64,000 nucleotides of DNA from a virus (IMGVR_UViG_3300046694_000315:42047-106046), one strand, 5' to 3'; positions 14,120 through 60,825 are shown, numbered from the stretch's first letter. A program made the numbers and translations. The notes: generated by a model not told the origin, from the sequence alone.

Positions 14120-14518
14120 TTACTTGCTAGATGTTGGCGTTTCCGTGACCGTTTCCTTCGGGCACGGAATCTTGACCTGCACGGAATGCGTGTGCGCCAG
14201 CCCGTATACGGGGGCGTACGGCGTGGCCGAGGACGTAGGTGCGGGCACTGCGGGCGAAGGCCCGACCACGAGCGATACCTTGCACGTGCCCGGGGATTCC
14301 GGCTTCGTTGCTTCCGGTGTCGGCTCGGGCAGATACCTGGTCACCGTTGACACGGGCTGCGGCGAGGAATCCCCTTCGTATTCCGGAGAATCCGACTGGG
14401 AATTCTCGGTATGAAGCCCGGGGAAATCCGACTGGGCAACCGCTGAGATCCCGAATGCCGGTACGGCGAGAATTCCGATTGCCGCAAGGGCGACTTTGAT
14501 GCGCTGGATTCCGTTCAT
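14120..14518 (-). CDS. secreted or membrane Pro/Thr-rich protein
   Basis: N-terminal hydrophobic signal-like segment; contains an in-frame CTTCATACC motif. Confidence 0.6.
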   Translation of the reverse strand: MNGIQRIKVALAAIGILAVPAFGISAVAQSDFPGLHTENSQSDSPEYEGDSSPQPVSTVTRYLPEPTPEATKPESPGTCKVSLVVGPSPAVPAPTSSATPYAPVYGLAHTHSVQVKIPCPKETVTETPTSSK

Positions 14519-14664
14519 ACCAGCACCGTACCGAAGCCCTCGCAGTGGACACAGTCGGCGCCGTCGCGGTCTTCACCGGACCCGTAGCACCTCTTGCAGT
14601 CGATCTCCTCTGCCGCGCCCTCGCCGGTTTCGGCGGGAGACACTGCATGCACGTGTGCGCTCAT
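14515..14664 (-). CDS. small DnaJ-type zinc-finger protein (not in ORF track)
   Basis: 49 aa translated by hand: CKRCYGSG...CVHCEGFG. Confidence 0.65.
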   Translation of the reverse strand: MSAHVHAVSPAETGEGAAEEIDCKRCYGSGEDRDGADCVHCEGFGTVLV

Positions 14665-14676
14665 GAGAAGTACTAA

Positions 14677-16215
14677 CTAACCTTCCTGGTTGATGTAAGT
14701 TGGTACGTCGACGATTTCGGCGTCGATGAAACCGGTAGAGGCTTCGATCATCCGGTCCGCCGAGAGAGGCCTGTCGAGCGCTGTCATCTGTTCCCCGGCG
14801 TCCCGGCCGAAGATACGGCTGATCATACCGGCCCCGCCGCCATTCCCCTTAGCCTCCAGTTTCACGGAGAAGGAGTCCTGCTCCAGTTCCGTCTTCACCT
14901 TCACGAGTTTCTGGAGCCGGTCGATCTCGCCGGAGAGGTTCGGATCCGCGTAGCCACCGGTCATATCCTCGACCATCTTCATGAAGAGGACCCGCTGCGC
15001 CTGCATCTCGATGAGCGAGTTCTGGAGCGACTGCATCTGCTGCTTGCTCTTCACTTCGACCGGGATGTCGTACGCGCAGTTGGCATTCTGGTCGAAGGCC
15101 GGGCACTTCGAGGACAGGAAGCAGGACGAGCAGGCGCGCATGGACTGGCTGCGCACGGTCAGGAGGGGGATGTCCCGCTCCTTGTTCACGCCGTCCTCGG
15201 GGTCGGTGTAGACCTCCTTCTCCTGCACCAGGCCGATGACCGGCAAGTTGGTACGCGGGCGGTCTCTGCGGACGGCCGGAGTTGTCACCGGGTTGAGCGT
15301 TTTTCCGTCCTCCGTACCAACTTCGGTGCCCTGCATTTGAGAGAAACTCGAAAGTACCCCTCCGGCAGAAGTAGTAACTGCTTGGGCTTCCTGCGGCCGG
15401 TGCTGGTCGATCGAGGCCGCCAACTGCTGCCACGACCAGATGGTGAACCGCAGGACCTCGTCGTTCTCTCCGGCCTCGATACGGTCGGCGTCGAAGCCCG
15501 CTTCGGTGAACAGAGTGCGGTGCCTTTTCCGCGCCTGGTCCTTGTACTTCTTCGGGTAGCGCTTCAATTCCCGGCCGGTCCACACAATGGTGTCACCGTA
15601 CTGGGAAGGGGAAAGCCAGGACGTCGAGGCGACGCTGTCCCAGTTCACGGCAGCCATTTCCGCAGGCTTAGTCATGGCCACTCCGTGGAGTAGCGTGCCG
15701 TATTTCCGGGTGATCTCGTTGAGAACCGGGGTGAGATTCCGGCCGTCGAGATCCGTCTGCGTCACACCGACCCGCTTATACCTCTGGGCGAGTTTATCGA
15801 GTTCGTCGACTCCCCATTCCGAATGCCATATCGGAAGGAACTTGTCTTCCGGCAGGTCCTCGTAGAAGTCCTCTCGCCGGGCCTCGATCCATTCCCGTCC
15901 GAGAACGACAGCGTCGAACTCGGACACCATATGAAGGGAATCGATATTCTGCTGGACGAACGCTTCGTAATGCGCGGCGATGTCCTTCAGTTCGCCGATC
16001 GAGTACTTGTCGTCGTCGGCCTTGTTGACCGTGTAGGCGCCGGAGTCCAGGAACACCTTCTGGTTTTCGAGGTAGTTGTCCTCGATCAGCCAGGGGCGGG
16101 TGAACTTGGTCCGGCGCCGCAGGCCCATGTACGAGAGGGAGACGGTTTCGACGCCTTCCTCGGCCAGCATCTTGCGCCAGCCGGGAATCTCGGATCCGCC
16201 GAGGAAGAGGTGCAC
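14677..16215 (-). CDS. tRNA-guanine transglycosylase (TGT/DpdA)-like protein with C-terminal Cys4 domain
   Basis: VFLDSGAYT, LHGVAMT, DSVASTSW; later CSSCFLSSKC...C and coiled-coil. Confidence 0.6.
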   Translation of the reverse strand: MHLFLGGSEIPGWRKMLAEEGVETVSLSYMGLRRRTKFTRPWLIEDNYLENQKVFLDSGAYTVNKADDDKYSIGELKDIAAHYEAFVQQNIDSLHMVSEFDAVVLGREWIEARREDFYEDLPEDKFLPIWHSEWGVDELDKLAQRYKRVGVTQTDLDGRNLTPVLNEITRKYGTLLHGVAMTKPAEMAAVNWDSVASTSWLSPSQYGDTIVWTGRELKRYPKKYKDQARKRHRTLFTEAGFDADRIEAGENDEVLRFTIWSWQQLAASIDQHRPQEAQAVTTSAGGVLSSFSQMQGTEVGTEDGKTLNPVTTPAVRRDRPRTNLPVIGLVQEKEVYTDPEDGVNKERDIPLLTVRSQSMRACSSCFLSSKCPAFDQNANCAYDIPVEVKSKQQMQSLQNSLIEMQAQRVLFMKMVEDMTGGYADPNLSGEIDRLQKLVKVKTELEQDSFSVKLEAKGNGGGAGMISRIFGRDAGEQMTALDRPLSADRMIEASTGFIDAEIVDVPTYINQEG

Positions 16216-16241
16216 GGTTTGGTTCTCCGAATCTGCTTGGG

Positions 16242-16925
16242 TTACTTCGGGGGCTGGACGGCGCTCTTGGGGAAGAGGCCGGGCTGGGTGACGCGGGGCT
16301 TCTTGGCGGCCGGAGCGCCTGCGGCGGGCTTCTGCCGGGGGCCCGGCGACGCGGCCATCCCGAACTGCTGCGGGGAGCGGACCTGGCTCGGGCCGAACAG
16401 TCCGGCCTGGACCACGCGCTGCGGCTTGGCGGCCGGTGGCGGCGTCTGCGGGGCCGACTGGACGGGGGTGCCAGAGGTGCTGGCGTGGGTGCCGAACGCG
16501 GAGTGGAAGTCGTCCCAGGCCCCGCCGGAGGGCTTGCTCTGCGCCTGGATGCCGTTCATCCGGGCGTTGAAGGTATGAAGGAGGTCGGAGGCCGCGCCGG
16601 AGTGCTGGGCATGCCAGGCGTCGAGGCTGGAGGAGTGGTCCTCGCGCACCCGCTGGATGTCGGCCTGGTTCTTGATGCCGTTGGCGATTCCCTCGCGGCT
16701 CATCACGCGAGCGTGCATGCTGCTGTCCTGGGCCGGGGCGCTCTGCTGGCCCTGTCCCTTGACGCGGATCTTGATGCGGGAGTTGGCGGGCTGCTGGCCG
16801 TTCTTGGCGTTCTCCAGGTCGCTGACGCGCTGCTCGACGCTGCGGCGCGAGCCGGGGAACTGGAGGGGCTGGAGGTAGCGGTCGCGGATCTGGGTCGCGA
16901 TGGAATGGAAGACGGAGCCACTCAT
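16242..16925 (-). CDS. low-complexity hypothetical protein
   Basis: ATG 16925 overlapping upstream stop; Gln/Pro/Ala-rich. Confidence 0.6.
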   Translation of the reverse strand: MSGSVFHSIATQIRDRYLQPLQFPGSRRSVEQRVSDLENAKNGQQPANSRIKIRVKGQGQQSAPAQDSSMHARVMSREGIANGIKNQADIQRVREDHSSSLDAWHAQHSGAASDLLHTFNARMNGIQAQSKPSGGAWDDFHSAFGTHASTSGTPVQSAPQTPPPAAKPQRVVQAGLFGPSQVRSPQQFGMAASPGPRQKPAAGAPAAKKPRVTQPGLFPKSAVQPPK

Positions 16926-17718: not shown

Positions 17719-18582
17719 TCACCCGTGCCGGTGTTCGATCAGGCCCTCACGGTGGGCCTTCTCATGGGCGCGGACGGCCTTGCGCTGGTCGTGCTCCAGG
17801 AAGCGGGGACTCATCCCGTGGGCCTGGATCAGGTGCTCGTGCACGGCGTCGAGGTTGGTGTGGGTCTTGATCTTGGGTTCGACGGGGGCGGTCTTCTCGA
17901 ACTGGTCGAGGTTGAGGACGTGGGCCCCGACATGGGTGTCTCCCCGGCCGCGCGCTTCGGCGAGCCGGTGGTGCGCGTCGGCGACGTACGGTGTGCCGCC
18001 CTGGATGACCACCTTCACGTGCGGGTGGTCGGGGGCCAGCGGGCCGGTGATGTAGGAGTGTGAGCCGGTCTCGTACGAGGTCTGGCCGGTGTGCAGGACG
18101 GCGCTGGTGCTGATGCTCTGGAACTTGGCGTGCTTGTTCCAGAAGGCCTCGTTGCCGTGGCTCATCTGCGGGCCGTGCTTCTCGTACCACTTGTCGTCGA
18201 TCTTGGTGTCGACGACGTTGCCGTGCCCGTCGAGGTGCCCGAACTGCTGCGGGGAGTGCGGCGGGCCCATGACCATCTGCCCCTCGGACTGGGGGTAGTT
18301 GGTGCGCTCCTCGTCATGGATGAGCGTCTCGTCACGGGCGGCGCCGAGCGAGGTGACCTTGGTGAACATCCCGCCGCTGTGAGGCGTGGGATGCCCGATA
18401 TGAAGTGCGCCGGGCTTGGCCTGGAGATGCAGCGGCGTGTCCTTGGTCAGGTGGTAGGCCGCGCGGAGCGCGGTCTGCTTCTGGCCTTGGGCGGAGACCC
18501 TGCTGCCCAGGGGGACCGGGAGGGCGGTCTGCTCGAACTGTGGACCGGCGGTGTCCGGCTTACTGCGGGAAGGTGCCATCAC
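17719..18582 (-). CDS. ParB/Srx-like domain protein
   Basis: HVKVVIQGGTPYVADAHHRLAEARGRG (DGHHR-type motif). Confidence 0.6.
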   Translation of the reverse strand: MMAPSRSKPDTAGPQFEQTALPVPLGSRVSAQGQKQTALRAAYHLTKDTPLHLQAKPGALHIGHPTPHSGGMFTKVTSLGAARDETLIHDEERTNYPQSEGQMVMGPPHSPQQFGHLDGHGNVVDTKIDDKWYEKHGPQMSHGNEAFWNKHAKFQSISTSAVLHTGQTSYETGSHSYITGPLAPDHPHVKVVIQGGTPYVADAHHRLAEARGRGDTHVGAHVLNLDQFEKTAPVEPKIKTHTNLDAVHEHLIQAHGMSPRFLEHDQRKAVRAHEKAHREGLIEHRHG

Positions 18583-19648: not shown

Positions 19649-20038
19649 TCAGAGTTTGAGAGAAGCGCGGAGTTGGGCCTCCTGGGCCTGCCGCTGCATC
19701 GCCTGTCCGACCATCATCATCTGCTGCTGGGTGCGCTGGGCCGTCTCCATGACGGTGAGGTCCTTCTGGACCACGGCGACGGCGCCGTAGATGTCGTCGG
19801 GGGTGGCTCCTCGCCGGGGGACGAACTTCTGGGTCAGGTCGCTGGTGGCGACGACTGCGCCGTCCAGGCCGACCGCGACGAGGAACGCCGTGGTGACCGG
19901 GGTGCCGATCTCGTCTTCGGCGGGCGGGTGCTCGTCCGCCATCTTGGCCAGGGCCTCACGCTGCTCGGGCGTGAGGTCGTCAGTATGAAGCGCGCTGCTG
20001 TCGCTGCTGGGGGTCTGGCCGAGGATCGGGATGCTCAT
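19649..20038 (-). CDS. hypothetical protein
   Basis: 129 aa, GGAG SD. Confidence 0.7.
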   Translation of the reverse strand: MSIPILGQTPSSDSSALHTDDLTPEQREALAKMADEHPPAEDEIGTPVTTAFLVAVGLDGAVVATSDLTQKFVPRRGATPDDIYGAVAVVQKDLTVMETAQRTQQQMMMVGQAMQRQAQEAQLRASLKL

Positions 20039-20566: not shown

Positions 20567-21184
20567 TCAGTACCAGTTAGTGGCCTGGGAGTGTGCCCAG
20601 GCGGTGCAGGGTGTCCCGTATACCGCCTCGATGTATCCGAGTCCCCATCGTATCTGGGTTATTGCATTGGTTTGCCAATCCGAACCGGCGGAAGCCATCT
20701 TCGAGGCCGGTAGTGCCTGGGGTATTCCGTAGGCGCCGGAGGAGGGGTTGGTGGCGGTGACGCGCCAGTTGGACTCCTTCTCCCACAGCAGGTCCAGGCA
20801 GGCGAACTGGGTGGCTCCGACCTTGGCGAGGGCGTAGGCCTTCGGGGAGGTCGTGGCGACGACGGTGTGCGTCGGCGTTGGGGACGCGCGGGGCGTCTTC
20901 GTCGGTTTTGGCTGGTGGGAGTGGGTGGCGCTGGCGGTCGGCTTGGGGGTCTTGGTGACCTTGGGGGTGGGCGCCGGAGCCGCCGAGGTATGAAGCGAGG
21001 GACGCGTCAGGGACCGGTTGGCGGTGTCCGGAGCTGCTCGGGTGACGGTCGGCGCTGCGGCGATGCCGCTGTAGTCGACGGGCTGGCCCTGGCCGGTGAT
21101 GGAGATGGCCGATACGACGGAAGCCGTAACGAGGATGGCGGACGCTGCTGCTGCTGCGACGCGGTAGCGCATGCGGTGCCTCAC
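20567..21184 (-). CDS. secreted lytic transglycosylase-like protein
   Basis: signal peptide, Pro/Thr linker, WEKESNW...NPSSGAYGIPQALP...QIRWGLGYI...YG. Confidence 0.85.
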   Translation of the reverse strand: MRHRMRYRVAAAAASAILVTASVVSAISITGQGQPVDYSGIAAAPTVTRAAPDTANRSLTRPSLHTSAAPAPTPKVTKTPKPTASATHSHQPKPTKTPRASPTPTHTVVATTSPKAYALAKVGATQFACLDLLWEKESNWRVTATNPSSGAYGIPQALPASKMASAGSDWQTNAITQIRWGLGYIEAVYGTPCTAWAHSQATNWY

Positions 21185-21264: not shown

Positions 21265-22131
21265 TCACGCCTTGACGGTGAACAGACCGCTGGCCTTGGC
21301 CAACTTCGTCAGCGATGCCAGGCCCGGAGCACCCTTGGCGTCGTCGCCCGTGTAGCCGCTCTTCCGGCGGAAGAGGTCGTAGCCGTCCTGCGTCTTGGTG
21401 CCCCAGGAGCCGTCCACCCACCGCGCGTCGAGGTAGCCCAGCGCCGACAGCGCCTTCTCGACGAGCAGCACGTCCGCCTTGTGGGTCGTGTGGCCGGTGG
21501 CCGCCGGGAGGTCCGCCTTGCGGGCCGCGACGACGTTGGAGACGTCCACGACCGGCTTCGCAGCGGGCTTCGGAGCCGGAGCCGGGGCGGCCGGAGCCGC
21601 CGGGGTATGAAGCGAAGGGTTCTGCGACTTCCACGCCGGGTCGGCCGACTCGATGCCGTCCGGGTATTCCGGGTAGCCATATCCGTAGACATGCGCGTCG
21701 GTCCGGACGTGGGTCTTGGCGTAAACGCCATCCCCCTCTGCCGAACCGTTTATGTTCGTATTGCCTTCTACGCTGAAGACGTGAGTCGCGTCGAATCCGA
21801 TAACGACCCCGGTGTGCTCACCTCCGCCCGGCCCGTAGAAGATTTGACTGCCGATCGCGGGGTACGCACTGAATCGCTTCCGGGCCTTGTACCAGGAAAC
21901 GCCGGTCGCGCACGAGGCGGTAACCGGGTAGGAGCCCTTCGGCAGGCCCGCCGTCTGGAAGGCCCACGCAGCGAATACCGCGCACCAGGCGCCTTCCGCG
22001 TCGTCGACCCACTCCAGGCCCGGGACCTTGTCGGCGTACTTCTCGTGGTTGTTCCAGTGGCCGTTGGAATAGCCCTCGTGGTATCCCACCTCGGCATTTA
22101 CGACCTTGGTGAGATTGTCGGTCAGAGACAT
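21265..22131 (-). CDS. endolysin (CHAP domain plus peptidoglycan-binding domain)
   Basis: AWCAVF, HTGVV, VEGNT; C-terminal LSALGY...VDGSWGTKT. Confidence 0.85.
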   Translation of the reverse strand: MSLTDNLTKVVNAEVGYHEGYSNGHWNNHEKYADKVPGLEWVDDAEGAWCAVFAAWAFQTAGLPKGSYPVTASCATGVSWYKARKRFSAYPAIGSQIFYGPGGGEHTGVVIGFDATHVFSVEGNTNINGSAEGDGVYAKTHVRTDAHVYGYGYPEYPDGIESADPAWKSQNPSLHTPAAPAAPAPAPKPAAKPVVDVSNVVAARKADLPAATGHTTHKADVLLVEKALSALGYLDARWVDGSWGTKTQDGYDLFRRKSGYTGDDAKGAPGLASLTKLAKASGLFTVKA

Positions 22132-22836: not shown

Positions 22837-24095
22837 CAGAACAACTTCTGCTGGCCCGGGTGGACCTCGGTATGAAGTCCGTTGCCCTTGCCGTAGGTGT
22901 TCAGCGAGGAGTCGTGGTTGTCGCCTCGGCGGCGCTTCTCCTCCGACCACTGCGCGGACTGCATGTTGGTCAGGGAGTTGAGGCCACGCTCCTGCATCAC
23001 GTTGCGGGCGACGTGGTCGTGGAAGGCGTGGATGCCCTTGATGCCCATGTAGGCCTGCTGGCTGCCGGAACCCTTCTTGTCCTCCAGGTGCGGGGCGAAC
23101 GCGCCGCCACCGGAGTGGGTGTCGGACACCCAGAACTGCGAGGAGCCGTGGGGGTCGACCCACGAGTTGTGGTAGGCGCCGACCTTCTCACCGGCCGTCG
23201 GCTTCCACGCGTTCGACAACTGCTTGCCGTTGAGGACCTGGTTCGTCACGTCGATGGCGAGGGCGTGGTTACGCGGGTAGCCGTTGACCGGGTAGGCGCG
23301 GGTGTCGCCTTCCTTCTTCACCAGTTGCGTGAACTGCTTGCCCGACTTCGAGGTGACGGTCTTCTCGACCTTGTCCTCGCGCGGGACGTAGTAGTCCGGG
23401 TGGTAGTGGTAGTCGGCGCCGGTCTTCCCGGACTTCGCCCACTTGATCGCGTGGCTGGCCGCCTCGTCGTTGGGGTAGACCGCCTTGCCCGTCTCCTTGT
23501 CCGGCCGCACGAAGACGTTCTGCGGGGACGTGATGGCGTTCGCAGCGGCCTGGACGCCGAAGGGCACCCCGTTCTCCTTCGCGGACGTCTTCAGGCGCGC
23601 ACGAGGGGACAGGGAGCCGTCACGGGTGTGGTCCTGGGCCGGGCTGTAGAACGAGTCGTGGTGCCCACCCTCGTGGGCGTAGGCACGGTCGACCTGCGCG
23701 GCCAGCGCGCGGTGCGCGGACTCGGGGGTGACACCGAACTTGGCGGCCGACCGCAGCACGCGGGACTGCTCGGCGGGCGTGTGGTCCTCCCACCGACGGT
23801 TGACCGGCATCATGTCCTTGACCGGGTTCATGGTGTGCTGGCCGTGCCAGACATCAGATCCCTCCGGGCCCGCCAACTCCATCTGGCCGTGGAGGTTCGG
23901 AGCCTTGTCGGTGTTGCCCATCAGCCGGTACGACTGGCGGGGACTGGCACCGGCACCGGGCTTGTCCTGGATGGTCTGGAACCGCTCGGGGTTGGCGGCC
24001 TCGTAGGACTGCCGCTTGGCCGACGCGTCCTTGACGGTCTTGTTGTAGGTGCGGGTATCCGCAGCCTTCTGTGCGGGGGTCTTGCTCGCAGCCAT
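22836..24095 (-). CDS. DNA glycosylase-like (HhH-related) phage protein
   Basis: AAANAITSPQN...GEKVGAY...VSDTH...MQSAQW, matching the AALSPQ/GPKV/IDxH/QAxxW phage family pattern. Confidence 0.5.
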   Translation of the reverse strand: MAASKTPAQKAADTRTYNKTVKDASAKRQSYEAANPERFQTIQDKPGAGASPRQSYRLMGNTDKAPNLHGQMELAGPEGSDVWHGQHTMNPVKDMMPVNRRWEDHTPAEQSRVLRSAAKFGVTPESAHRALAAQVDRAYAHEGGHHDSFYSPAQDHTRDGSLSPRARLKTSAKENGVPFGVQAAANAITSPQNVFVRPDKETGKAVYPNDEAASHAIKWAKSGKTGADYHYHPDYYVPREDKVEKTVTSKSGKQFTQLVKKEGDTRAYPVNGYPRNHALAIDVTNQVLNGKQLSNAWKPTAGEKVGAYHNSWVDPHGSSQFWVSDTHSGGGAFAPHLEDKKGSGSQQAYMGIKGIHAFHDHVARNVMQERGLNSLTNMQSAQWSEEKRRRGDNHDSSLNTYGKGNGLHTEVHPGQQKLF

Positions 24096-26190: not shown

Positions 26191-26789
26191 GCGAAGGCCA
26201 GGATGTCCCTGACCTTGGTATGAAGGTCTTCGAGGGTGCCGTCGTTGATCAGGCGGACGTCGAACCACTTGTCGGGCAGGGGCTTCTCGGACTTGTGGTC
26301 GTTGACCGCACCGACGCCGGGCCGCTCGATCTTGACGAGCATGCCGAGGCGGGAGTCGATGGCGTGGTGCTCGTTCTCGAACCGCAGGTCGGTGAAGACG
26401 TACTTCTTGTCCTTGTCCAGGCCCTTGAAGGCGGCGTCGACCCACACGTTCTGGTCGATCATCTCGCGGCCGACTTCGGTGCCGATGACCTGGAGCATCC
26501 GGCGGATCTCGGGGTAGGCGCGCTTGGCCTCGTCCCACCCGATGGTGTCCACGATGTCCTTCACGCGGATGTCCTGGCCGTCGGTGCCGAAGAGCACGAC
26601 GGGGTTGAGGACGTACAGGGCCTCGCGGAGTTTGTCGGCGAAGGCGACGCGGGTGTAGCCGTAGTCGGCGAGGATCTTGGCGACGGCGTCCTTGCCCGCG
26701 CCGGGGAAGCCGTGGAGGCCGATGAACTGCGGGAGCCAGGACTCGACGATGTCGTGGCCGTCGGTGGTGTTGGTGGTGGCGGTGCTCAC
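26187..26789 (-). CDS. deoxynucleoside monophosphate kinase
   Basis: GLHGFPGAGKD, FADKLR, LQVIGTE, TDLRFENE, HKSE. Confidence 0.9.
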   Translation of the reverse strand: MSTATTNTTDGHDIVESWLPQFIGLHGFPGAGKDAVAKILADYGYTRVAFADKLREALYVLNPVVLFGTDGQDIRVKDIVDTIGWDEAKRAYPEIRRMLQVIGTEVGREMIDQNVWVDAAFKGLDKDKKYVFTDLRFENEHHAIDSRLGMLVKIERPGVGAVNDHKSEKPLPDKWFDVRLINDGTLEDLHTKVRDILAFA

Positions 26790-28016: not shown

Positions 28017-28696
28017 TTGGCGGACACCTTGCTCTTGGGCGCTTCGTCGTTCTTGATCGTGGCCTTGAAGAAGGCTCCGGCTGCGTCGTGCCATACGACG
28101 ACACCCTCGGGGTCCTTGAAGCCGGGAGCGATGAAGGAGCCGTCCGACTCCAAGGTATGAAGCGCGATGTTCACGGCGTAGTTCAGGTCGTTGCCGTTGG
28201 CGACCAGGATGACCGGTACGACGGTGACCTCCGGCGGGGCGGGGACGGCCTTGGGGAAGGTCTCCAGGTACTTGTCGGTGACCTCGGCGTCGCGGATGTC
28301 GTACCAGCGGTTGACGTTGAAGAGGGCGAAGCGCCTGTCGTCGAGGCCGTAGCCGGACTGGATGCCCTTGCCGAACCACTCGCCGTAGTGCTTGCCCTCG
28401 CCGAGCGCGGTGAGTGCGTCGGCGTTGTCGTAGACCCACTTGGCGAAGCCGAAGTTGTCGGCTTCCAGGGTCAGCCAGCGGTTCCGGCTTCCGGCCCGGA
28501 CGAGGTAGGTGTTGCCGTCGCTGCCTCCGGCGAGGATGCCGGTGGGGTCGGTGGCCTGGAACAGGTCGGGCTCGTCGACCTTGGTGACCTCGATCAGGCC
28601 GTTGGTGCCGTTGATCTTCTCAGTGAGCACGACCTTGCGGTGCAGTCGCGGGATGGGCCGGAACTTCGGGTAGTCGCTGGACTTGAGGATGGTCAT
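28013..28696 (-). CDS. RNA ligase (Rnl2-like nucleotidyltransferase domain)
   Basis: TEKINGTN (KxNG), GSR, YGEW, EGVVV, FK. Confidence 0.85.
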   Translation of the reverse strand: MTILKSSDYPKFRPIPRLHRKVVLTEKINGTNGLIEVTKVDEPDLFQATDPTGILAGGSDGNTYLVRAGSRNRWLTLEADNFGFAKWVYDNADALTALGEGKHYGEWFGKGIQSGYGLDDRRFALFNVNRWYDIRDAEVTDKYLETFPKAVPAPPEVTVVPVILVANGNDLNYAVNIALHTLESDGSFIAPGFKDPEGVVVWHDAAGAFFKATIKNDEAPKSKVSAK

Positions 28697-30894: not shown

Positions 30895-31232
30895 GGCAGT
30901 ATCTCCTCGGCGTCCATTTCCGGATGCGCCAAGGTATGAAGCGCCAGGAAAGTCTCTTCGGACATCGTGATCCAGTTTCTTCCACCGGACATCTGAGTCC
31001 CGAAGAGCATTTCCCTGCCGTCGACCAGGGCTTGCTTCTCTGCGGTGATCAGTTCCTTTTCCTTGAGCGAGTACGATCCCTTACTGGTGACCTTGTACTC
31101 GATCGAATAATCCGGGGTGCGGACGTCGTTCTTTCGCACCCAGCCGTTGCCGCTACCTGCGTTCACCGTCCCGCCGAGGAGTTGCGCTCCCCGCCGCTCC
31201 TGCCTCTGGCTCTTCTTCAACATGTCCGCCAT
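30888..31232 (-). CDS. Holliday junction resolvase-like PD-(D/E)XK nuclease
   Basis: QERR.A...GSG...KNDV...IEYK. Confidence 0.75.
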   Translation of the reverse strand: MADMLKKSQRQERRGAQLLGGTVNAGSGNGWVRKNDVRTPDYSIEYKVTSKGSYSLKEKELITAEKQALVDGREMLFGTQMSGGRNWITMSEETFLALHTLAHPEMDAEEILPW

Positions 31233-45820: not shown

Positions 45821-46065
45821 CAGGTTCGCTCCGCGTCCGCGCGGAGCCAGATATGAAGCCGGTTGCCCCGGACCTCGCGCCGGTCGCTGTAGCGGAAGGG
45901 CCGGAAGCCGAGACTCTTGGCGCGGGCCCAGGCCAGGCGCTTCAGCATGCTGACGGTGTGCTGCTGCTCGGGGAACCTGCCGGTGATCGTCGACAGGATC
46001 TCGTCTTTGTAGACAACTGACAAAATCTCGTCCTCGAAGGGGAGGACCATCTGCTCATGCTGCAC
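45820..46065 (-). CDS. hypothetical protein
   Basis: 81 aa, internal EDEILS/KDEILS duplication. Confidence 0.5.
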   Translation of the reverse strand: MQHEQMVLPFEDEILSVVYKDEILSTITGRFPEQQHTVSMLKRLAWARAKSLGFRPFRYSDRREVRGNRLHIWLRADAERT

Positions 46066-46714
46066 GGCGGTCTCCTCCGACGATCGTGAGGTGGGTGAAG
46101 GCCTCCTGGATGAAGGAGCCCATCGTGGGGTTGTAGACGGCGCCCCACTCCCGGGGCGGGAGGTTCGAGGTGACCAGGGTGGGCAGGGCCTCGCGGTGAC
46201 GCTGGCGCAGGAGGGTGTCGAGCAGGCCTTCGGCGTAGCCGGTCTTGGTGCGGTGCTCCTTGCCGACGTCGTCCAGGAGGAGGACGGGGGCCTTCTCGGC
46301 CGCCACGATCTTGTCCTGGATCTCCCACCAGCGGGCGACGGCTTCGGGCTCGTGCCGGTCCTGGAGGCCCATCTTCTCGATGGAGTCCTTCACGAAGTCG
46401 GCGTAGGCCAGCCAGTGGACCGGCAGGCGCTTCTCGAAGTAGACCTCCAGCAGGGTGGCCGTGGCCAGGGAGGTCTTGCCGGTGCCGGGAGGGCCGACGA
46501 ACAGCAGGCCCTTGCCGATCTGGGACCAGTCCTCGGGGTACTGGTCGAGCGGGCGCTTGTCGGTGACGTAGTGGTCGCGCAGGTTGTCGAGCCAGGTCTG
46601 GCAGGCGGCGCGCGGCGCGGCGTCCGCCACGGTATGAAGCCGCAGGTGGCGGTAGTGCGCCGGGATGCCGTACTCCTTCAGGCGCAGGGCGTGGACCCGG
46701 GGGTCTGTCGCCAT
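46055..46714 (-). CDS. DnaC/IstB-like helicase loader ATPase
   Basis: GPPGTGKT, LLLDDVGKE, TLVTSN, GGDRR. Confidence 0.9.
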   Translation of the reverse strand: MATDPRVHALRLKEYGIPAHYRHLRLHTVADAAPRAACQTWLDNLRDHYVTDKRPLDQYPEDWSQIGKGLLFVGPPGTGKTSLATATLLEVYFEKRLPVHWLAYADFVKDSIEKMGLQDRHEPEAVARWWEIQDKIVAAEKAPVLLLDDVGKEHRTKTGYAEGLLDTLLRQRHREALPTLVTSNLPPREWGAVYNPTMGSFIQEAFTHLTIVGGDRRAA

Positions 46715-47820: not shown

Positions 47821-47915
47821 TCGGCGACTCCGAGGAAGCGATAAGTATGAAGCGATATCCCCATGCTAGGGTCTCTCTCATCTCGGGGTTTGTGGTGGGC
47901 CTCGGGGTGTGGTGG

Positions 47916-47980: not shown

Positions 47981-49219
47981 TCACTCCGAGTCGAAGTCGA
48001 GGCCCTTCTCCTCGATCTCCGCCCGCGTCAACTGGACGACCTTCTGTCCGGCCGGGATCCGGCCACGGCCGCGACGGCTGTAGTTGCCCTCGTCGTCGAC
48101 CAGGTAGGCGAACGTCTTGGTCTCGTCACGCGGACGGCCACGGCGACGGCGCGGGGTCGACTCCTCTTCCTCCTGCTCCTCGGCGGCCGGAGCCTCCGAG
48201 GCCTTCTCCTGCTGGGCGGCGTCGCCCAGGGTATGAAGCGCCTTTCGGAGCAGTTCGGTCAGCGGGCGCTCGCGCACGTCGGCCTGGTTGATGACCGCGT
48301 TGCGCTCGTCCTCCAGTCGGAAGGCGTTGTAGGCACCCTCCAAAGCGGCGCGCACGAGGAGCAGGTCGATCTCCGTGTCCGGGACCGCCTTGGCGGCCTC
48401 CTGCTGCGCCTTGTGCTGCGCTCGGGCGACCTCCTGCTCCAGGCTCTCCTGGTTCTGGATGTCCTCCTCGACCGGGTCTGCCTCCGGCTCGGGCTCCGGC
48501 TGGGCCTTGCGGCGACCGCGACGCTTCGGCGCCTCCGGCTCGGGCTCCGGCTGCGGCTCCGGCTGCGCTTCCGGCTCGTCCTCCGTCAGCGGCTCCTCTT
48601 CCACCTCGACCGGCTCCGGCTCGGCACGGCGACCGCGACGGCGGCCACGCTTCGGCGCCTCCGGCTCGGGCTCCGGCTCGGGCTCGGGAGCGGCCTCGGC
48701 CTCGGGCTCGGGCTCGGGCTCGGGCTCGCTGGCGAAGGAGATGTCGTCGAGTCCGGCCGTGAGGTCCTTCGCCTTGATCCCGGCGGCCTCGGCCGCGTCC
48801 AGAAGGAGTTCGGCTTCCTCGCTGCCCTCGTCGCCCCACAGGAGGATGACGTGGGCGTCGCCGACGCTGTCGGCCTTCTTCAGCAGGTCGACGATCCCGG
48901 CGGTGACGTTGGCCGTGCGCACGACCTCCTCGGCGTCCTTGAGGATGGAGTCCACGGCCCGGCTCTTCTCGCCGTCGGTGACCGCGATGAACGGGATGTC
49001 CGCGTACTCCGACCACTCCAGCACGGCCTCCAGGCCGTCGGACAGGTGCTTCTTGGTGATCGGCAGGATGAGGGTGACTTCCCGCTCGGTGGGCTCGGGG
49101 AAGCCGTCGGCGTCGTCCTCGCCCAGGCCGACGAAGTCGTTCAGCAGAGCCTTGACGTTGTCGATGTCGGTGTCGGCGGAGCCAGCGAAGGCGAGGGCGA
49201 TGGGGTCGGTGCTGCTCAA
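47981..49219 (-). CDS. acidic Pro/Glu-rich protein with AT-hook/Lsr2-like basic motifs
   Basis: probable TTG start 49219 after GGAG; EPEPE tracts; RRRGRPR and RGRIP. Confidence 0.75.
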
Positions 49220-49628: not shown

Positions 49629-50156
49629 TCAGACCGCCGACGCGGTGAGGTCGATGGACTTCGACAAGGCGGCAGCCGGGCCCGGGACCTCGGCCACGTC
49701 CGCGACTGCCTGTGGCAGGGTGCGCCGCAGGACGGACTCCAGGGCCGTGACGATCTGCTGGACGGCCTCTGCGCTCAAGGCGTTGCTGCTGGCCGGGACG
49801 ACGGCGCTCTCCTCGACGTACTCCTCGACGGTCCCGGACGGGATATGAAGCCGGATCTCCGCCTCCGCGATCAGCGTGTTCTGGAGCCGGGCGAACCAGG
49901 AGTACTTCTTCAGCAGCGAGTGGTAGAAGGTCGTGCCGGACACCCACGCCAGGAACGCGGCGACGACGGCGGGCGCCCAGTAGAAGTGCTGGGGGTGCGC
50001 CTGGTAGACGGCCCAGAATCCGGTGGCAACCGCTAGGACGGCATGCGCCGCTCCCTTGACTGTGCTGTTGGTGGACGGCTTGGAGAACAGAGCGACCACG
50101 GCCGGTAGGCCCAGGCCGACGACGAGGGAGGACACGTCGGCGTAGTTGGTGAACAT
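49629..50156 (-). CDS. holin-like membrane protein
   Basis: three N-terminal TM segments, soluble tail; follows tail genes. Confidence 0.55.
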   Translation of the reverse strand: MFTNYADVSSLVVGLGLPAVVALFSKPSTNSTVKGAAHAVLAVATGFWAVYQAHPQHFYWAPAVVAAFLAWVSGTTFYHSLLKKYSWFARLQNTLIAEAEIRLHIPSGTVEEYVEESAVVPASSNALSAEAVQQIVTALESVLRRTLPQAVADVAEVPGPAAALSKSIDLTASAV

Positions 50157-56125: not shown

Positions 56126-58591
56126 TCAACTTGCCATAACTATGTAGTCGACGCCGGTGGCCGTTGTATTCGTTCTGGTGAGCCAGATCGTAACTGAGTC
56201 CGTTGTCACGCCGGTACATCCGACGCCCGTCACCGACGTTCCGGGAACTGTGGTGGAAGGCGTCGCGATTGCTCTCGGACTACTGCCCGTAAGGCCGAGC
56301 CCCGTTACCGTCACCGACGTCGGAGTATTCGCGGCGCTGGGGGTGATCGTCACGCGGCCGGTAACGATATTCGCAGCGGCCAGGACACCGGATACCTGTA
56401 GCGCGTCAGCGCCAATTTCCGCCCCCGTGTAGGCGCCGTTGTAAGACAGGAGGATGTATGGGGTGTCTGCGGTGTCGTTTACGTTCGGCGGAGCGATAAA
56501 CATCGACCTGGAATCGGCTGAGCCGTCGACCGAGATGAGTCCGGGAGCGTCCGTGGCGGTGGCGCCGTAGAACAGCAACTCGGCGAAGTTCGCAGGGTTG
56601 TTCGAGTTCATCTCGACGCGGGCACCCGACGCGGCGCTTCGGACGGTTGCACCAGTGATGGTGGACGTACCGGTGATCGTGACACCGTTGATCGTCTTGC
56701 CATTGATGGCGTTCGCGTCGAGTTTGTCGGCGGTGATAGACCCGGCCACGACCAGCGCGTTGTCCACGGCCTTGCGCATCTTGGCGTTGGTGACGAGCCA
56801 GTACCCGGCCGCCGTCGTCGGTGTCGTCTGTGACGGGCCTACACCGAACGTCGCCAGGTACTTCCCGGCCGGGATCGTGATCTGGCCGCTGATCTTGATC
56901 CAGGTTGTTGCCGCCGACGGAGCGAGGCTTGCGGTAGCGGGCCAGGTGGTGTTGGCGCCTGCTGCGTCCGACGTCGCCAGGAAGAACCGCAGGCTGCTGT
57001 TGCAGGTGCTGGAGGCGGCCACCCACGCCTCGACGTAGTAGGTCTCCCCCGGCGACACCGGCATGGCGTTCAGCGTTCCGGCGCTGTGCTTCCACGTCAG
57101 GTCGGTGTTGAGGCTGGTCTGCGAGATGAGTTTCGCGACCCACGAGGCTGGGGCCCCTGCCGTCACGCTGGGGTCGGTGGAGGCCGTCCGGACGACGTTG
57201 GTGCCCCAGTTCCAGGCGCTGCTGTTCTGCGTGAACTGGGGGTCCAGGAGGATGTTCGACGTATCTCCGATGACCAGCTTGTCCGTGGTGATGGACCGGG
57301 CCCCGATGACGGATGCGCTGATGGTGCCGGTGGTGATCGAGCCGCCGTTGATCGTCGTGGTGGTCGGGATGGTGCCGTTGTTCAACTGGTTGGCCGGGAT
57401 GCTGACGCCCGAGCCGATGGAGCCGGTGACCGTGGTCGCCGAGGACGCGGAACCTGACGTCGTCGCGGAACCTGCCGTGGCTGCGGAGGAGACCTGCCCG
57501 GAGACGTTCGTGCCGGAGATGACGAGGTTGGTCGCGTCGATCTGTGACGCTGTCAGCCTGCCGACGGTGATCTTGGAGGCATCGATGGACGCGATGACGC
57601 CGGACTCAGCGGTGATCGTCCCGGCCGCCATCTGGTTGGCGGTGACCGAGTTGGCTGCGATGTCCCCGGTGCCTGCCTGGTGCGCCGTGCCGGAGTTCGC
57701 GGCCGACGGCGCGGAAGCGATGGCGACCTTGGAGTAGGCCACCAGCCGGTAGCTGTACGCGGAGGCGTAGTTCTGGACGGAGTCGTAGAGGAAGTCCGCG
57801 CCGGGCAGCGTGCCGACGACGACCGGGTTGGAGAAGGCCGGATCGGTGTCCCGCTGCACCTGCACGTGGGAGAAGATCGCAGGCATCGCGAAGCCGGAGA
57901 CGTCCTTGCCGTCCCAGGTGACGCGCAGGCCGCCGAGCACGCCGGTAACCCCCGGGGCGGAGGGCACCGGAGGTGGGGTCGAGGACGAGGCGCTGGTGAT
58001 GTGCGCGGACGCCCACAGGGAGACGTTGCTGGAGATGTCGACTGCCTGCACGCGGACCATGACGTCCACGCCGGTATGAAGCCCGTCGAGGACGACGAGG
58101 GTGTCCTGGGTGACCAGCCCGCCGGACCAGTTCGTGCCGTCGTAGGAGTACTGGAGGACGTAGTGGGCGAGGTCGGTGAGGTTGGTGCCGTCCTGGTTCT
58201 CCGTCGGCGCGGTCCAGCTCGCCTGCACGCGGGCCAGGGTGGCACCCTCGTTGGTGACGTACTGCACCGTGGTGAGGGTCAGCGCGGTCGGTTCCTTGGG
58301 CGGGAGAACGTCCAGTGTGTCCCCGGTCGGCAGACCGTCGACCGCGTCCTGGACGTCCTTGATGCCCAGCGGGGAGTAGACCGGCTTCGTGATGTCCCCG
58401 CCCGAGAACTGCACCCACAGGGTCTGGCCGACCGGAGGCACCGTGTTCGTCGGGGATGCCGGAACGGCCCACGCACTTTCCGCGCTTCCCAGGACCTGCG
58501 GAATCAGCAGGGTAACCCGCGCCTCATTCAGCGGGTCCTGGTTATTGGAGACACTTCCCCGGTATATGCCCAGCATCGGCTCAGCCGACAT
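56126..58591 (-). CDS. baseplate spike (gp5/VgrG OB fold) fused to FN3 and fibre-like regions
   Basis: YRGSV..NQDP...RV...PQV...WA.P...P.VG..LWVQF.GGD...PVY; FN3 motifs; ITADKL-type repeats. Confidence 0.8.
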   Translation of the reverse strand: MSAEPMLGIYRGSVSNNQDPLNEARVTLLIPQVLGSAESAWAVPASPTNTVPPVGQTLWVQFSGGDITKPVYSPLGIKDVQDAVDGLPTGDTLDVLPPKEPTALTLTTVQYVTNEGATLARVQASWTAPTENQDGTNLTDLAHYVLQYSYDGTNWSGGLVTQDTLVVLDGLHTGVDVMVRVQAVDISSNVSLWASAHITSASSSTPPPVPSAPGVTGVLGGLRVTWDGKDVSGFAMPAIFSHVQVQRDTDPAFSNPVVVGTLPGADFLYDSVQNYASAYSYRLVAYSKVAIASAPSAANSGTAHQAGTGDIAANSVTANQMAAGTITAESGVIASIDASKITVGRLTASQIDATNLVISGTNVSGQVSSAATAGSATTSGSASSATTVTGSIGSGVSIPANQLNNGTIPTTTTINGGSITTGTISASVIGARSITTDKLVIGDTSNILLDPQFTQNSSAWNWGTNVVRTASTDPSVTAGAPASWVAKLISQTSLNTDLTWKHSAGTLNAMPVSPGETYYVEAWVAASSTCNSSLRFFLATSDAAGANTTWPATASLAPSAATTWIKISGQITIPAGKYLATFGVGPSQTTPTTAAGYWLVTNAKMRKAVDNALVVAGSITADKLDANAINGKTINGVTITGTSTITGATVRSAASGARVEMNSNNPANFAELLFYGATATDAPGLISVDGSADSRSMFIAPPNVNDTADTPYILLSYNGAYTGAEIGADALQVSGVLAAANIVTGRVTITPSAANTPTSVTVTGLGLTGSSPRAIATPSTTVPGTSVTGVGCTGVTTDSVTIWLTRTNTTATGVDYIVMAS

Positions 58592-59729: not shown

Positions 59730-59994
59730 TGGGGACCCGCACGATCTGCCCCGGGGTGATCACGGTCCAGTCCATGATCTCCGGGTTCGCGTCGGCGATG
59801 TGCCACCACATACCGGGGTCGCCGTAGTACTGCTGCGCGAGCAGGTCGATACGGTCAGCCGAAGTCAACTGGTGGTAGGTGAAGTTGAACGTCCACTCGC
59901 GCTGCTGGCCGGGCACAACCGTGAGGTTGGTGCCCCGGCTGGAGGCAACGAGGGTGAGCGTGGAGTCTGCGTAGCGGGAGTTGTTGGTGATCAC
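59722..59994 (-). CDS. LysM/tail X-like baseplate protein
   Basis: DRIDLLAQQYYGDPGMWWHIADANP...PGQIVRVP. Confidence 0.85.
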   Translation of the reverse strand: MITNNSRYADSTLTLVASSRGTNLTVVPGQQREWTFNFTYHQLTSADRIDLLAQQYYGDPGMWWHIADANPEIMDWTVITPGQIVRVPSV

Positions 59995-60794
59995 CGTCCG
60001 GCCTTTCCGCTCTTGGCCGCCTGCTCGGAGGCAGACAGCGGGTCGCCCCAGTTGCCTGCGCGAGGGCCGATGAAGCCGGGCTTGGCCTCGTACTTGTTGC
60101 CTCCCTGCGGCGTCGGCAGGAGCGTCACGGTGACCGTGACCTGCGCGCGAGAGGGGATCATCTCCTGGGTCCAGTGGGTGTACTGGAGGTCCAACTGCTG
60201 GATGACGCCGTAGTAGGACAGCGACGTGCCGATCACGACGTACACCGGCACGTAGGTCATGGGACCGGCCGGGCCGTTGGTGTAGGTGCCCTTCGAGAAC
60301 GCCTTCTTGTAGGCGTCCGCGTCGGAGCTGCTGTCGTCGGTGACCGGCATCGGGGTGGCGATACCGGTGATCTTGTAGAGGGCGAGGATGTCGTAGGCCA
60401 CGCCGAAGGAAGGCACCATCGTGGCCGCCTCCCCGTACAACTTCGAGGAGTCCCACAGTTCGTAGGTGCGGTCGAAGAGCAGGCTGAACGACAGCGTCTG
60501 CTGAAGTGGGAGCAGCGTCTGCCCGGCGGTGACGTCGTCCTTGTTCACCGCGTTCGGGTCGGACAGGACGTTGGTGTCGATGCCGTGGGAGATGCTGATC
60601 GTGCTCGGGTTGTAGAGGAAGTTGCAGCGCTGGCGGGCGCCGTTCACTCCCTTCTCCTGGATGATGAATCCCCGGGTCAACTTCTTTCCGCCCGACCCGG
60701 TAACCCAGTCGACTCCGCCCAGGTTCTGGGTGAACGGAATGCTGGTGATTCGCGGGTCGAAGGGACCGTTGTCGGTTATCTTGCTGGCGGCCAT
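59991..60794 (-). CDS. tail tube initiator-like protein
   Basis: FLYNPSTIS...LSFSLLFDRT...P.RA.V.V; position after tape measure. Confidence 0.65.
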   Translation of the reverse strand: MAASKITDNGPFDPRITSIPFTQNLGGVDWVTGSGGKKLTRGFIIQEKGVNGARQRCNFLYNPSTISISHGIDTNVLSDPNAVNKDDVTAGQTLLPLQQTLSFSLLFDRTYELWDSSKLYGEAATMVPSFGVAYDILALYKITGIATPMPVTDDSSSDADAYKKAFSKGTYTNGPAGPMTYVPVYVVIGTSLSYYGVIQQLDLQYTHWTQEMIPSRAQVTVTVTLLPTPQGGNKYEAKPGFIGPRAGNWGDPLSASEQAAKSGKAGR

Positions 60795-60825
60795 TACGCG
60801 ACCGCCCGAGTATGAAGTCGCATTG

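Follow-up and report, generated by a model that had tools for sequence, protein, structure and literature searches.

The question raised by this stretch of phage DNA is what might read a short word that has been written, almost always on the same strand, into unrelated genes. The window, i.e., the whole stretch that was analyzed (64,000 nt, IMGVR_UViG_3300046694_000315:42047-106046), belongs to a phage genome of 106 kb. The phage is temperate, as indicated by the presence of an integrase and by a close relative that resides as a prophage in the sequenced genome of Streptomyces sp. NPDC002088. Megablast against phage records gave no match to the phage genome; its nearest cultured kin are BRock, Alone3 and GiJojo (PolA about 52%), and the word is absent from the first 50 kb of BRock, the cultured relative and the part of it that were examined. 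In the window, GTATGAAG occurs 25 times on the + strand and 0 times on the - strand, exactly at the positions listed in the initial annotation, and the strong enrichment claimed there is borne out, with shuffles giving a mean of 0.28 copies (maximum 2) vs. the 25 observed. A shuffle that preserves amino acids and codon usage left 0.38 copies (maximum 3) vs. 39 observed in called genes. Over the whole genome, GTATGAAG is found 35 times on the + strand and once on the - strand. The core of the word is 8-9 nt long and can be written CTTCATA[C/T]: there are 42 sense copies of CTTCATAY in the whole genome, and CTTCATA occurs 43 times on the coding strand vs. once on the opposite strand.

The 22 copies previously assigned to genes are indeed in frame (21 in called genes and one in ORF 14120-14518, which the gene caller had missed), and the remaining three sit in leader mini-ORFs, so that frame 0 is shared by all 25 exact copies of the window. 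As a whole, the pattern is stronger than initially described. Leu-His-Thr (LHT) is 9-fold over-represented and is encoded by the motif in 32 of 34 cases, while both non-motif LHT tripeptides use ordinary codons (CTG/CTC-CAC-ACC), as had been pointed out for a control tripeptide. The variant words reported earlier are real as well (four CTTCATAT, one CTTCATAA and one CTTCATGC). Each of the four CTTCATAT copies (window 15929, 18398, 45851 and 49843) is in frame and reads LHI or LHM; CTTCATAA at 4863 is probably a non-site, and CTTCATGC at 60983 is a decayed site with intact orthologues. The sites inside genes and the decayed site, in window coordinates and with the exact copies on the + strand, are as follows:

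14408..14416, codon 35 of the 132-aa ORF (14120-14518) missed by the gene caller, with a hydrophobic N-terminus
15928..15936, CTTCATATG (LHM), codon 94 of a DpdA/TGT-like protein (phrog_887)
16572..16580, codon 116 of a 227-aa protein
18397..18405, CTTCATATC, codon 59 of a 286-aa protein
19982..19990, CTTCATACT, codon 17 of a 129-aa protein
20987..20995, codon 60 of a 201-aa protein
21604..21612, codon 174 of a 288-aa protein
22869..22877, codon 407 of 419 in a protein without assignment
26217..26225, codon 189 of 200 in a dNMP kinase
28154..28162, codon 179 of an RNA ligase (PF09414)
30933..30941, codon 98 of a 114-aa resolvase-like nuclease (phrog_2002)
31377..31385, codon 387 of 392 in RecA; the hairpin loop contains a UGAUG stop/start junction
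33608..33616, codon 477 of ribonucleotide reductase, the only two-site gene in this block
34451..34459, codon 196 of ribonucleotide reductase
37870..37912, site with its hairpin, DNA polymerase A codon 14; the hairpin here has three different sequences among relatives, each from +11
38689..38697, codon 50 of a 270-aa protein
39431..39439, codon 35 of a MerR-like protein
40348..40356, codon 50 of a 125-aa protein
43272..43280, codon 203 of a DnaG-type primase
45117..45125, codon 85 of DnaB helicase, with an 8-bp hairpin at +11
45850..45858, CTTCATATC, codon 70 of an 81-aa protein, with a UGAUG stop/start junction 36 nt further on
46631..46639, codon 26 of an IstB-like AAA ATPase
48230..48238, codon 328 of a 412-aa protein
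49842..49850, CTTCATATC (LHI), codon 103 of a 175-aa protein
58073..58081, codon 171 of an 821-aa baseplate-hub protein (Phage_base_V)
60983..60990, CTTCATGC (LHA), decayed; orthologues have CTTCATACC or CTTAATACC

The reading frame of these sites is nearly invariant. When frame statistics were pooled over six related genomes, which comprise two types (C-type and A-type, see below), CTT-MAT-AYN was in frame 0 at 206 of the 207 copies inside genes, with one copy in frame 2 and none in frame 1; codon usage alone would rank the frames 2 > 1 > 0. Third-position A (5.3%) and T (6.1%) are about equally rare. Each genome holds 9-11 [APST]-S-Y tripeptides, plus CTTCATCC words, that are one synonymous step off the motif, and 0 of these are used. 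Amino acids have been altered to create frame-0 sites, while synonymously reachable options in frames 1 and 2 were never taken. Translational cost could in principle yield the frame lock, since other frames need UCA/AUA and, in the A-type, UAA/UUA.

Copies that seemed intergenic turned out to be in frame within tiny leader ORFs coupled to the next gene. These leaders have a purine-rich, Shine-Dalgarno-like stretch upstream (of variable strength), an ATG, the motif at codon 3-7, and a stop codon that abuts or overlaps the start of the next gene. The leaders, and one short ORF with a related arrangement in the A-type, are:

32546..32578, recA leader MRLHTYGGPC, site at 32564-32572, stop 2 nt before the recA GTG
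42890..42898, site at codon 8 of a 65-aa ORF; the A-type locus is a 14-codon leader ORF
47817-47864, leader MGISLHTYRFLGVAE, site at 47844..47852, stop overlapping the GTG start of an HTH_36 gene (GTGA)
60794-60823, leader MRLHTRAVA, site CTTCATACT at 60809..60817, TAA overlapping the next ATG (TAATG)

In the C-type, the recA leader forms an ORF of its own, and in the A-type its ATG is joined in frame to RecA; therefore, the motif is translated in both. Untranslated RNA holds 0 of about 70 independent sites, with about 10% of the genome being non-coding.

Comparison with relatives showed how the word is conserved and how it turns over. In a sister clade (A-type), CTTAATAY (Leu-Asn-Thr) stands at matching places, no CTTCATAY is present, and the enriched tripeptide is LNT rather than LHT. 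This one-base switch (C to A) was made at about 26 orthologous sites with no old-type site kept, and the two types are found in the same metagenomes. The sole reversed copy (five genomes) lies in a reversed gene, in frame, and has switched type along with the others. Because this copy follows its gene, and because the frame lock is near-absolute (206/207), a polar DNA motif of the Chi/KOPS type, whose polarity would depend on replication or DNA ends regardless of gene direction and frame, or replication or packaging polarity can be rejected; this had been among the options initially proposed. Of 40 copies sampled in the genome of the Streptomyces lysogen, all of them outside the prophage contig, 0 are in sense frame 0 (5 are in frame 2, 14 antisense and 21 non-coding), and no extra folding was detected at these 40 copies. 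A selected, oriented nucleic-acid signal with a dedicated reader is strongly supported.

The word also has a partner. A stable hairpin follows it, the 5' arm of which begins sharply at +11 (11 nt after the first C). Predicted folds downstream of the motif reach -14.4 vs. -10.2 kcal/mol (P = 3e-15), the hairpins exceed synonymous resamplings in stability (z -1.37 vs. -0.20, P = 4e-4), and at orthologous places without the motif the hairpins are weaker (P = 0.009). The AU-rich word itself stays unpaired, and the hairpin sequences are mutually unrelated; for example, the PolA gene of one relative (L023) has a hairpin of different sequence at the same +11. The effect shows a slight sense-strand bias. 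An intrinsic terminator was rejected, since no U-tract follows: the 9 nt on the 3' side of the first helix contain 15% T and no T run.

With regard to the distribution along the genome, one block of the window is devoid of sites:

165..13080, site-free block; its five sigma-70-type promoter-like sequences (GCTTGACA-N15-19-TANNNT) lie without exception on the coding strand

Promoter-like sequences of this form are confined to the motif-free block. The genes for TerL, portal, major head, sheath and tube have no site either, and the motif has no copy in clearly untranslated RNA. There is about one site per gene, and genes with at least two sites are fewer than expected (1 observed vs. 4.5 expected, P = 0.0055). 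Sites are enriched in the first 16 codons of genes; 18% follow the start codon by no more than 50 nt (e.g., PolA codon 14), and for most the distance to the next start exceeds 200 nt.

Taken together, CTT-CAT-AYC and its hairpin, present about 40 times in unrelated genes and leader ORFs, and the concerted base change in the sister lineage point to an undescribed phage-mRNA signal that is probably read in translation. Of the options listed in the initial annotation, the mRNA-level one (CUUCAUAC) fits best, and it is sharpened by the hairpin, the leader mini-ORFs and the lack of untranslated copies. We tentatively propose, at somewhat less than even chances, that motif and hairpin form a type-specific ribosome pause or arrest cassette gating non-early phage genes; the ribosome as the place of reading, the pause as the outcome and the purpose of the pause are what we infer here, on top of the sequence, frame, hairpin, direction, co-switch, distribution and host control, which are observed. 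On the sense RNA, the unit has two parts, an unpaired in-frame CUU-CAU-AYC (in the sister type, CUU-AAU-AYC) and, after a spacer of two bases, a GC-rich hairpin that is about 9 bp long and free in sequence. In a ribosome with CUU as the P-site codon and CAU/AAU as the A-site codon, the base of the hairpin would lie at the mouth of the mRNA channel, 5 nt downstream of the A-site codon, and such spacing is that of recoding and pausing signals. The pause might be set or relieved by a phage-specified factor whose specificity differs by one base between types. The pause would gate translation across the whole class of non-early genes (those for replication and recombination and part of those for the virion), possibly for silencing leaky lytic messages in a lysogen or for timing the lytic programme, and a gene unable to carry the triplet might be given a tiny coupled leader ORF that carries it instead. 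Abundant G34 tRNAs decode the triplet, so that a hungry-codon stall is not an obvious explanation. A more far-reaching version is a phage-wide translational lock, in which ribosomes would stop at nearly every non-early gene or its leader depending on whether a type-specific key is present or absent, with two mutually exclusive types, His-type (CAU) and Asn-type (AAU), in the same soils. We regard this version as a possibility to be taken seriously, although the balance is against it; if true, the lock would be the translational counterpart of stoperator immunity.

Programmed frameshift and pause cassettes are similar to the proposed pause unit in their strict phase, exact 7-8 nt word, 5-nt spacer, free-sequence structure and P-site CUU, the latter being the P-site codon of the prfB and Ty1 +1 frameshift sites. 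Such cassettes combine a fixed-phase heptamer, a spacer of 5-9 nt and a stable structure, and here the hairpin stands 5 nt after CAU/AAU. However, there are about 40 copies per genome here, in unrelated genes, and translation must stay in frame. Inspection shows that re-pairing at -1 is impossible for CUU and CAU, and a +1 slip would give UUC/UUA and then the rare AUA codon (1.1 per 1000). Distances to shifted-frame stops are not shorter than at random in-frame positions but somewhat longer, and the genes continue in frame 0. Therefore, with neither -1 tRNA re-pairing nor a conserved shifted-frame stop or ORF, frameshifting as the output is not supported. Translational bypass was likewise rejected, since the stretch that folds into the hairpin is translated and shows homology to relatives that lack the site.

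The main rival to a ribosome pause is an RNA element that serves a transcription or RNase factor, in which free or nascent RNA is read without the ribosome and the single-stranded 9-mer and hairpin are the docking site of a phage RNA-binding protein. Such a protein could, in a nut-like manner, reload an antiterminator on RNA polymerase along very long operons; it could also turn the hairpin into a factor-dependent terminator in the lysogen, or direct endonucleolytic processing that leaves a protective 5' hairpin. A bipartite layout in which a hairpin comes after a single-stranded word, restricted to the sense strand and tracking gene direction, is what would be expected, as are the co-switched types and the unpaired state of the AU-rich word. 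Further, long transcripts are likely, because the motif-rich 50 kb is without the host-type promoters of the motif-free block. On this account, the frame lock would simply be the cheapest way of writing an AU-rich word into GC-rich genes, given that other frames would require A-ending codons or a stop. However, none of the about 70 independent sites is untranslated, where the cost would be nil, the intergenic copies are wrapped in translated mini-ORFs, and synonymous chances in frames 1 and 2 went unused while amino acids were changed for frame 0. Lambda nut and rrn boxA have a conserved single-stranded 8-12-mer beside a hairpin and thus share with our motif a sense-RNA-only word next to a hairpin, but nut sites are few and untranslated with a conserved loop, and translation through them impairs them, whereas here about 40 sites per genome are all translated, the hairpin sequences are not conserved, unlike boxB, and no U-tract follows. 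T4 RegB/RegA, which bring about class-wide post-transcriptional shut-off of early messages, also rely on a phage protein that recognizes a short RNA word common to many messages of the same temporal class; however, their targets are in translation initiation regions and have no in-ORF frame lock, hairpin partner or type switching. Overall, we consider docking without the ribosome unlikely, yet deserving of the most attention among the rivals.

At the DNA level, the word might be a short stoperator, i.e., the site of a repressor-like phage protein that blocks elongating RNA polymerase one-way, with the types as immunity groups. This would suit a temperate phage with about 40 dispersed asymmetric sites oriented with transcription and with different words in sister types, and the logic matches that of cluster A stoperators (PMC9283540). 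The stoperators of cluster A mycobacteriophages (L5 gp71 / TipsytheTRex repressor sites; PMC9283540, PMC6550527) are likewise dozens of asymmetric words in temperate actinophages, oriented with transcription (here, 42 sense copies and one reversed copy in a reversed gene, five genomes) and differing among related phage types. The reader of cluster A stoperators is a monomeric immunity repressor of the L5 gp71 type. However, these stoperators are 13-mers, read as a 13-bp duplex without a partner hairpin, in promoters and short intergenic spaces (PMC9283540), whereas the sites described here are 8-9 nt, lie inside ORFs or mini-ORFs in a single frame with a hairpin at +11, and are absent from the promoter block. 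A free-sequence, co-evolving hairpin, its synonymous support and its sense-strand bias have no role in DNA binding, and the mini-ORFs would be unexplained. The stoperator option raised earlier thus fails on site position and frame lock and is improbable. Even less credible, to the point of being nearly negligible, is a short promoter for a phage-directed form of RNA polymerase, like the 8-bp T4 late promoter, with the hairpin as a 5' stabiliser of transcripts. Its attractions are a distribution complementary to that of the sigma-70-type promoters, a hairpin beginning at +11, about where the start site would fall, orientation with gene direction and type co-variation. However, most transcripts would start inside genes, with 18% of sites at most 50 nt past a start codon and the majority separated by >200 nt from the start that follows; the C-type word has no A at -11 of any -10-like hexamer; and frame lock and mini-ORFs are again unexplained. 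A sigma-70-type -10 element (TANNNT, A at -11, T at -7) was also rejected by inspection, since no hexamer in CTTCATAC has both bases. The motif resembles CTTGATA, the HUH/Rep nick site of phiX174 and pC194; this reading was dropped because it leaves the frame lock unexplained and the hairpins have no conserved sequence. The suggestion of a modification target is unlikely as well, and a target of phage DpdA (7-deazaguanine) was rejected, because the sense 9-mer has no G and the A-type has lost the central G of the antisense word. Published targets of phage DpdA are short and contain G, namely a strict GA for iggy and two different motifs for CAjan (PMC10484667, PMC7544227).

A full-text literature search for the motif words, plus a broader search, returned nothing relevant, and we found no described counterpart for the concerted one-base switch, the partner hairpin or the avoidance of untranslated RNA, which holds even if the reader is other than the ribosome. 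If the pause reading holds, the phage would possess a genome-wide regulatory code inside coding sequence, read in phase, under selection strong enough for amino-acid changes in polymerase, RecA, helicase, primase and reductase and for about 40 hairpins to be kept folded via synonymous choice. Phage gene control would thereby gain a further class of cis signal, one that might act at the level of elongation with exchangeable specificity, and C-type and A-type might serve as a compact, portable, orthogonal switch pair for Streptomyces engineering. The prophage relative in Streptomyces sp. NPDC002088 makes the idea directly testable.

Guide-RNA, tRNA and type-segregation analyses did not find the reader. 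Of the candidate readers suggested initially, SpoVS, the MerR-like HTH protein and WhiB are present and DUF4258 gave no match, and none gained support; SpoVS was rejected as a type-specific reader, since the A-type copies are nearer to the window's than those of a C-type genome (G003) are. For an antisense guide RNA, no locus with a G·U-tolerant complement co-switches, and only the sites themselves do. Because the A-type is one tight clade, segregation analysis cannot single out a reader protein; its only clear outlier is the 114-aa resolvase-like nuclease (92% identity among C-types, 76-77% in the A-type), which looks like a DNA nuclease and may be taken as a weak lead. No tRNA correlates with phage type, and Rfam revealed no further tRNA. 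tRNA-Asn(GUU) is encoded in every genome in which a tRNA cluster was seen, i.e., five of the six, the incomplete G004 yielding no such cluster. An odd 86-nt long-arm tRNA with anticodon GUG occurs in only three of the four C-type genomes.

The source record (106,046 bp, 65.5% GC, with bases 42047-106046 forming the window) is the genome of a myovirus-type temperate phage. It encodes baseplate proteins J and V, sheath, tube, portal, major head protein, TerL and a serine integrase, together with a replication set that includes PolA, class II RNR, RecA, DnaB, a DnaG-type primase, SNF2, ThyX, a dNMP kinase, endonuclease VII, an RNA ligase, WhiB and a MerR-like protein. Its cultured kin, the Streptomyces phages BRock, Alone3 and GiJojo, are distant (PolA ~52% identity), and 38 closer loci were found in IMG/VR. 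A relative with 93% identical PolA occupies ~86-182 kb of a 203-kb contig of Streptomyces sp. NPDC002088 (NZ_JBEOXO010000018.1), and therefore the host genus is Streptomyces. This prophage also offers a sequenced Streptomyces genome in which to look for a living test system.

The initial annotation had reported 25 copies of GTATGAAG on the + strand of the window and none on the - strand, and every copy was recovered at its position, with 0 copies confirmed on -, against 0.28 from dinucleotide shuffles. Over the whole genome the word occurs 35 times on + and once on -, and it is the most strand-asymmetric 8-mer present. The - strand carries nearly all genes, and so the sense word is CTTCATAC, with the core CTTCATA[C/T] (CTTCATA, 43 sense vs. 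1 antisense). Called genes hold 39 copies, compared with 0.38 (maximum 3) in a shuffle that preserves all protein sequences and codon usage.

In every genome a single copy, and no more, runs the other way; it is part of a small gene on the opposite strand that lies upstream of a conserved 358-aa gene. There it is again in frame, as L-H-T, or as L-N-T in a genome of the A type, the sister clade in which CTT-AAT-AY replaces the CTT-CAT-AY of the C-type phages. Since the reversed copy is in frame within a reversed gene, word orientation follows the gene, not the replicon. This settles the orientation check put forward in the initial annotation, and it removes the Chi/KOPS-like directional motor that had been among the options of the initial annotation, as well as packaging-type or replication polarity.

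The in-frame Leu-His-Thr reading was likewise borne out. Gene calling with a codon model covered six genomes, namely that of the window, three relatives with complete genomes and two that are ~75% complete. Of the 207 intragenic copies of CTT[C/A]ATA[C/T] in them, 206 fall in frame 0 (CTT-MAT-AYN), with one in frame 2 and none in frame 1. Codon frequencies alone predict the opposite ranking (frame 2, then 1, then 0), and A-ending and T-ending codons are near-equally rare (5.3 and 6.1%). The control words CTTCATGC and CTTCATCC occur in frame 2, read as ordinary Phe-Met and Phe-Ile. The LHT tripeptide was observed 34 times against 3.7 expected, 32 of these being coded by the motif, while none of the [APST]-S-Y tripeptides (9-11 per genome), where a synonymous change alone would give a frame-1 word, carries it. 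In the lysogen, the prophage contig has ~47 copies, nearly all on one strand, and the remaining 10.7-Mb genome has ~88 on both strands; 40 control copies outside the prophage contig comprised 0 in sense frame 0, 5 in frame 2, 14 antisense and 21 non-coding, and showed no extra folding.

The copies left "intergenic" by the gene caller are not untranslated, as one lies in a missed ORF and the rest in tiny ORFs, including the following:

Window 14120-14518: real ORF missed by the gene caller, carrying one word copy
Window 32546-32578 (-): mini-ORF MRLHTYGGPC-stop, preceding recA
Window 47817-47864: mini-ORF MGISLHTYRFLGVAE-stop
Window 60794-60823: mini-ORF MRLHTRAVA-stop

The tiny ORFs have an ATG preceded by a purine-rich (Shine-Dalgarno-like) stretch of varying strength, the word in frame at codon 3-7, and a stop directly at the following start codon, either overlapping or adjoining it (TAATG, GTGA, ATGA, TGATG). 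Across 30 loci the recA leader keeps its ATG, word and frame, while the remaining peptide drifts. In A-type phages an 11-nt difference makes this ATG the in-frame start of a fused RecA (MALNTCAGGPDKE...), whereas in C-type phages the same indel leaves a leader ORF of its own, 10 codons long, ahead of a RecA that starts with GTG (equivalents in loci L009 and L011 were compared), and therefore the word is translated either way. Non-coding sequence makes up ~10% of these genomes, yet of ~70 independent sites not one is in RNA that is clearly untranslated.

A hairpin accompanies the word. In the window's genome the 40 nt after it fold at -15.1 kcal/mol, vs. -10.5 kcal/mol at random in-frame positions, and two relatives agree; pooling 71 independent sites gives -14.4 and -10.2 kcal/mol (P 3e-15). 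Base-pair probabilities show that the word stays single-stranded (0.15 at nt 4-6), and the 5' helix arm begins sharply at +11 (first C = 0), the modal hairpin start, with a median of 9 pairs in the first helix. No U-tract follows this helix, which rules out an intrinsic terminator. Real hairpins are stabler than those obtained by resampling synonymous codons for the same peptides (mean z -1.37 vs. -0.20 at control places, P 4e-4), orthologous places without the word fold more weakly (paired P 0.009), and the sense-minus-antisense folding difference leans toward the sense RNA (P 0.016). Three distinct hairpin sequences occur at PolA codon 14; each starts at +11, and the peptide encoded by one differs. 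When a ribosome has CUU in its P site and CAU in its A site, the helix starts 5 nt past the A-site codon, the same spacing as in recoding and pausing signals.

By word, the relatives form two exclusive groups: C-type phages (13 loci, plus five fetched genomes where applicable) have CTTCATAY and essentially no CTTAATAY, and A-type phages (23 loci) have CTTAATAY and no CTTCATAY. Site density is ~0.65/kb in both, all sense, and the same metagenomes hold both types. Conservation in related phages, raised as a check on the initial annotation, takes a concerted form, in which sites are kept at ~26 orthologous positions as LHT or LNT according to type, and the proteome enrichment shifts from LHT to LNT. 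Lineage-specific sites arose either from ordinary CTG-CAC-ACC (C-type) or CTG-AAC-ACC (A-type), or from unrelated codons via amino-acid replacement, and those of both origins are all in frame 0. Mixed sites are rare: an A-type word at the RecA C-terminus of the otherwise C-type locus L025 (L025:16405-16412, +), and one A-type copy in the otherwise C-type prophage (G010:C18:136147-136154), 21 nt before a C-type site. Such single words are probably due to recombination with A-type phages. A divergent relative with only 67% identical PolA carries no more than four copies, each of them sense and reading LHT, and therefore the element predates its expansion.

The type switch demands a specific reader. 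Neither an antisense RNA candidate nor a tRNA tracking type was found, and no type-tracking protein could be singled out because the A-type is a single tight clade. A 114-aa resolvase-like nuclease (window 30888-31232, -; phrog_2002, D...ExK motif) has 92-97% identity among most C-type phages and only 76-77% in all A-type loci, a pattern that its neighbours do not have. An odd tRNA of 86 nt, which has a long variable arm and a GUG anticodon (called His; L068:8973-9058, -; genome + 28973-29058), adjoins tRNA-Asn(GUU) outside the window; it is present in three of four C-type genomes and absent from the C-type G003 and the A-type G005.

The sites are unevenly distributed over the genome:

Window 14.4-50 kb: replication and recombination block, 27 sites in 35 kb
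Window 1-14,408 and ~4 kb beyond: site-free block, 0 sites in 18.5 kb
Virion block (33 kb): ~5 sites
Window 165-13080 (-): five strong sigma-70-type promoter-like sequences with the extended -35 GCTTGACA in common

Within the replication block, sites are spread over genes more evenly than chance (1 gene with at least 2 sites vs. 4.5 expected, P 0.0055), and sites are enriched within the first 16 codons and 15-50 nt ahead of the next start. No site lies in the genes for TerL, portal, major head, sheath or tube. The window has five promoter-like sequences of the form GCTTGACA-N15-19-TANNNT, vs. 0.02 expected, and every one sits in the site-free block. A reading of the word as a -10 box was rejected.

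Taken together, confinement to the sense strand, a near-absolute phase, translation of the leaders, the lack of copies in untranslated RNA and the geometry of the hairpin point to an element that is probably read during translation. We hypothesize that word and hairpin might form a ribosome pause or arrest cassette, the effect of which would depend on a type-specific phage factor and which might gate non-early genes; we infer both steps, from in-phase reading to a pause and from a pause to gating. The element shares its anatomy with frameshift or pause cassettes but lacks some of their defining features. Frameshifting is not supported as the output, since re-pairing is impossible and no shifted-frame product exists, and neither is bypassing, since the part of the gene that holds the hairpin is translated and has homologous sequence in relatives that lack the site.

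The main alternative to reading by the ribosome is an RNA element whose reader would be an RNase or transcription-elongation factor and whose frame would be imposed by translational cost alone. This would account for the hairpin and the polarity, and the other frames do require UCA or AUA, or UAA or UUA in the A-type; however, it leaves unexplained the avoidance of non-coding RNA, the mini-ORFs and the unused synonymous opportunities. A DNA-level stoperator-like site is a weaker alternative, as is a promoter reading. The cluster A stoperators resemble the element in their many oriented sites, type-specific words and temperate actinophage setting (PMC9283540), but it lacks some of their defining features. 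Targeting by DpdA was also rejected. No paper that mentions the word was found in the literature.

The DpdA/TGT-like gene stands at the head of a block of five genes that lack a family match:

Window 14677-16215 (-): 512-aa DpdA/TGT-like protein (phrog_887 'queuine tRNA-ribosyltransferase', E 2e-75)

This protein has no Pfam TGT match, nor does the Streptomyces lysogen genome. The RNA ligase (PF09414; window 28013-28696, -) and the phage's own tRNAs hint at tRNA damage and repair in infection. Between TerL and portal lies a 636-aa collagen-like tail-fibre protein (L067:10905-12815, -). Two close relatives lack it and two others share only ~30% identity with it, and so it is a mosaic insertion. 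In two relatives, a c-di-AMP (ydaO) riboswitch lies within the phage tRNA cluster (L050:1130-1269, -, 62.7 bits; L048:7294-7434, +, 57.1 bits).
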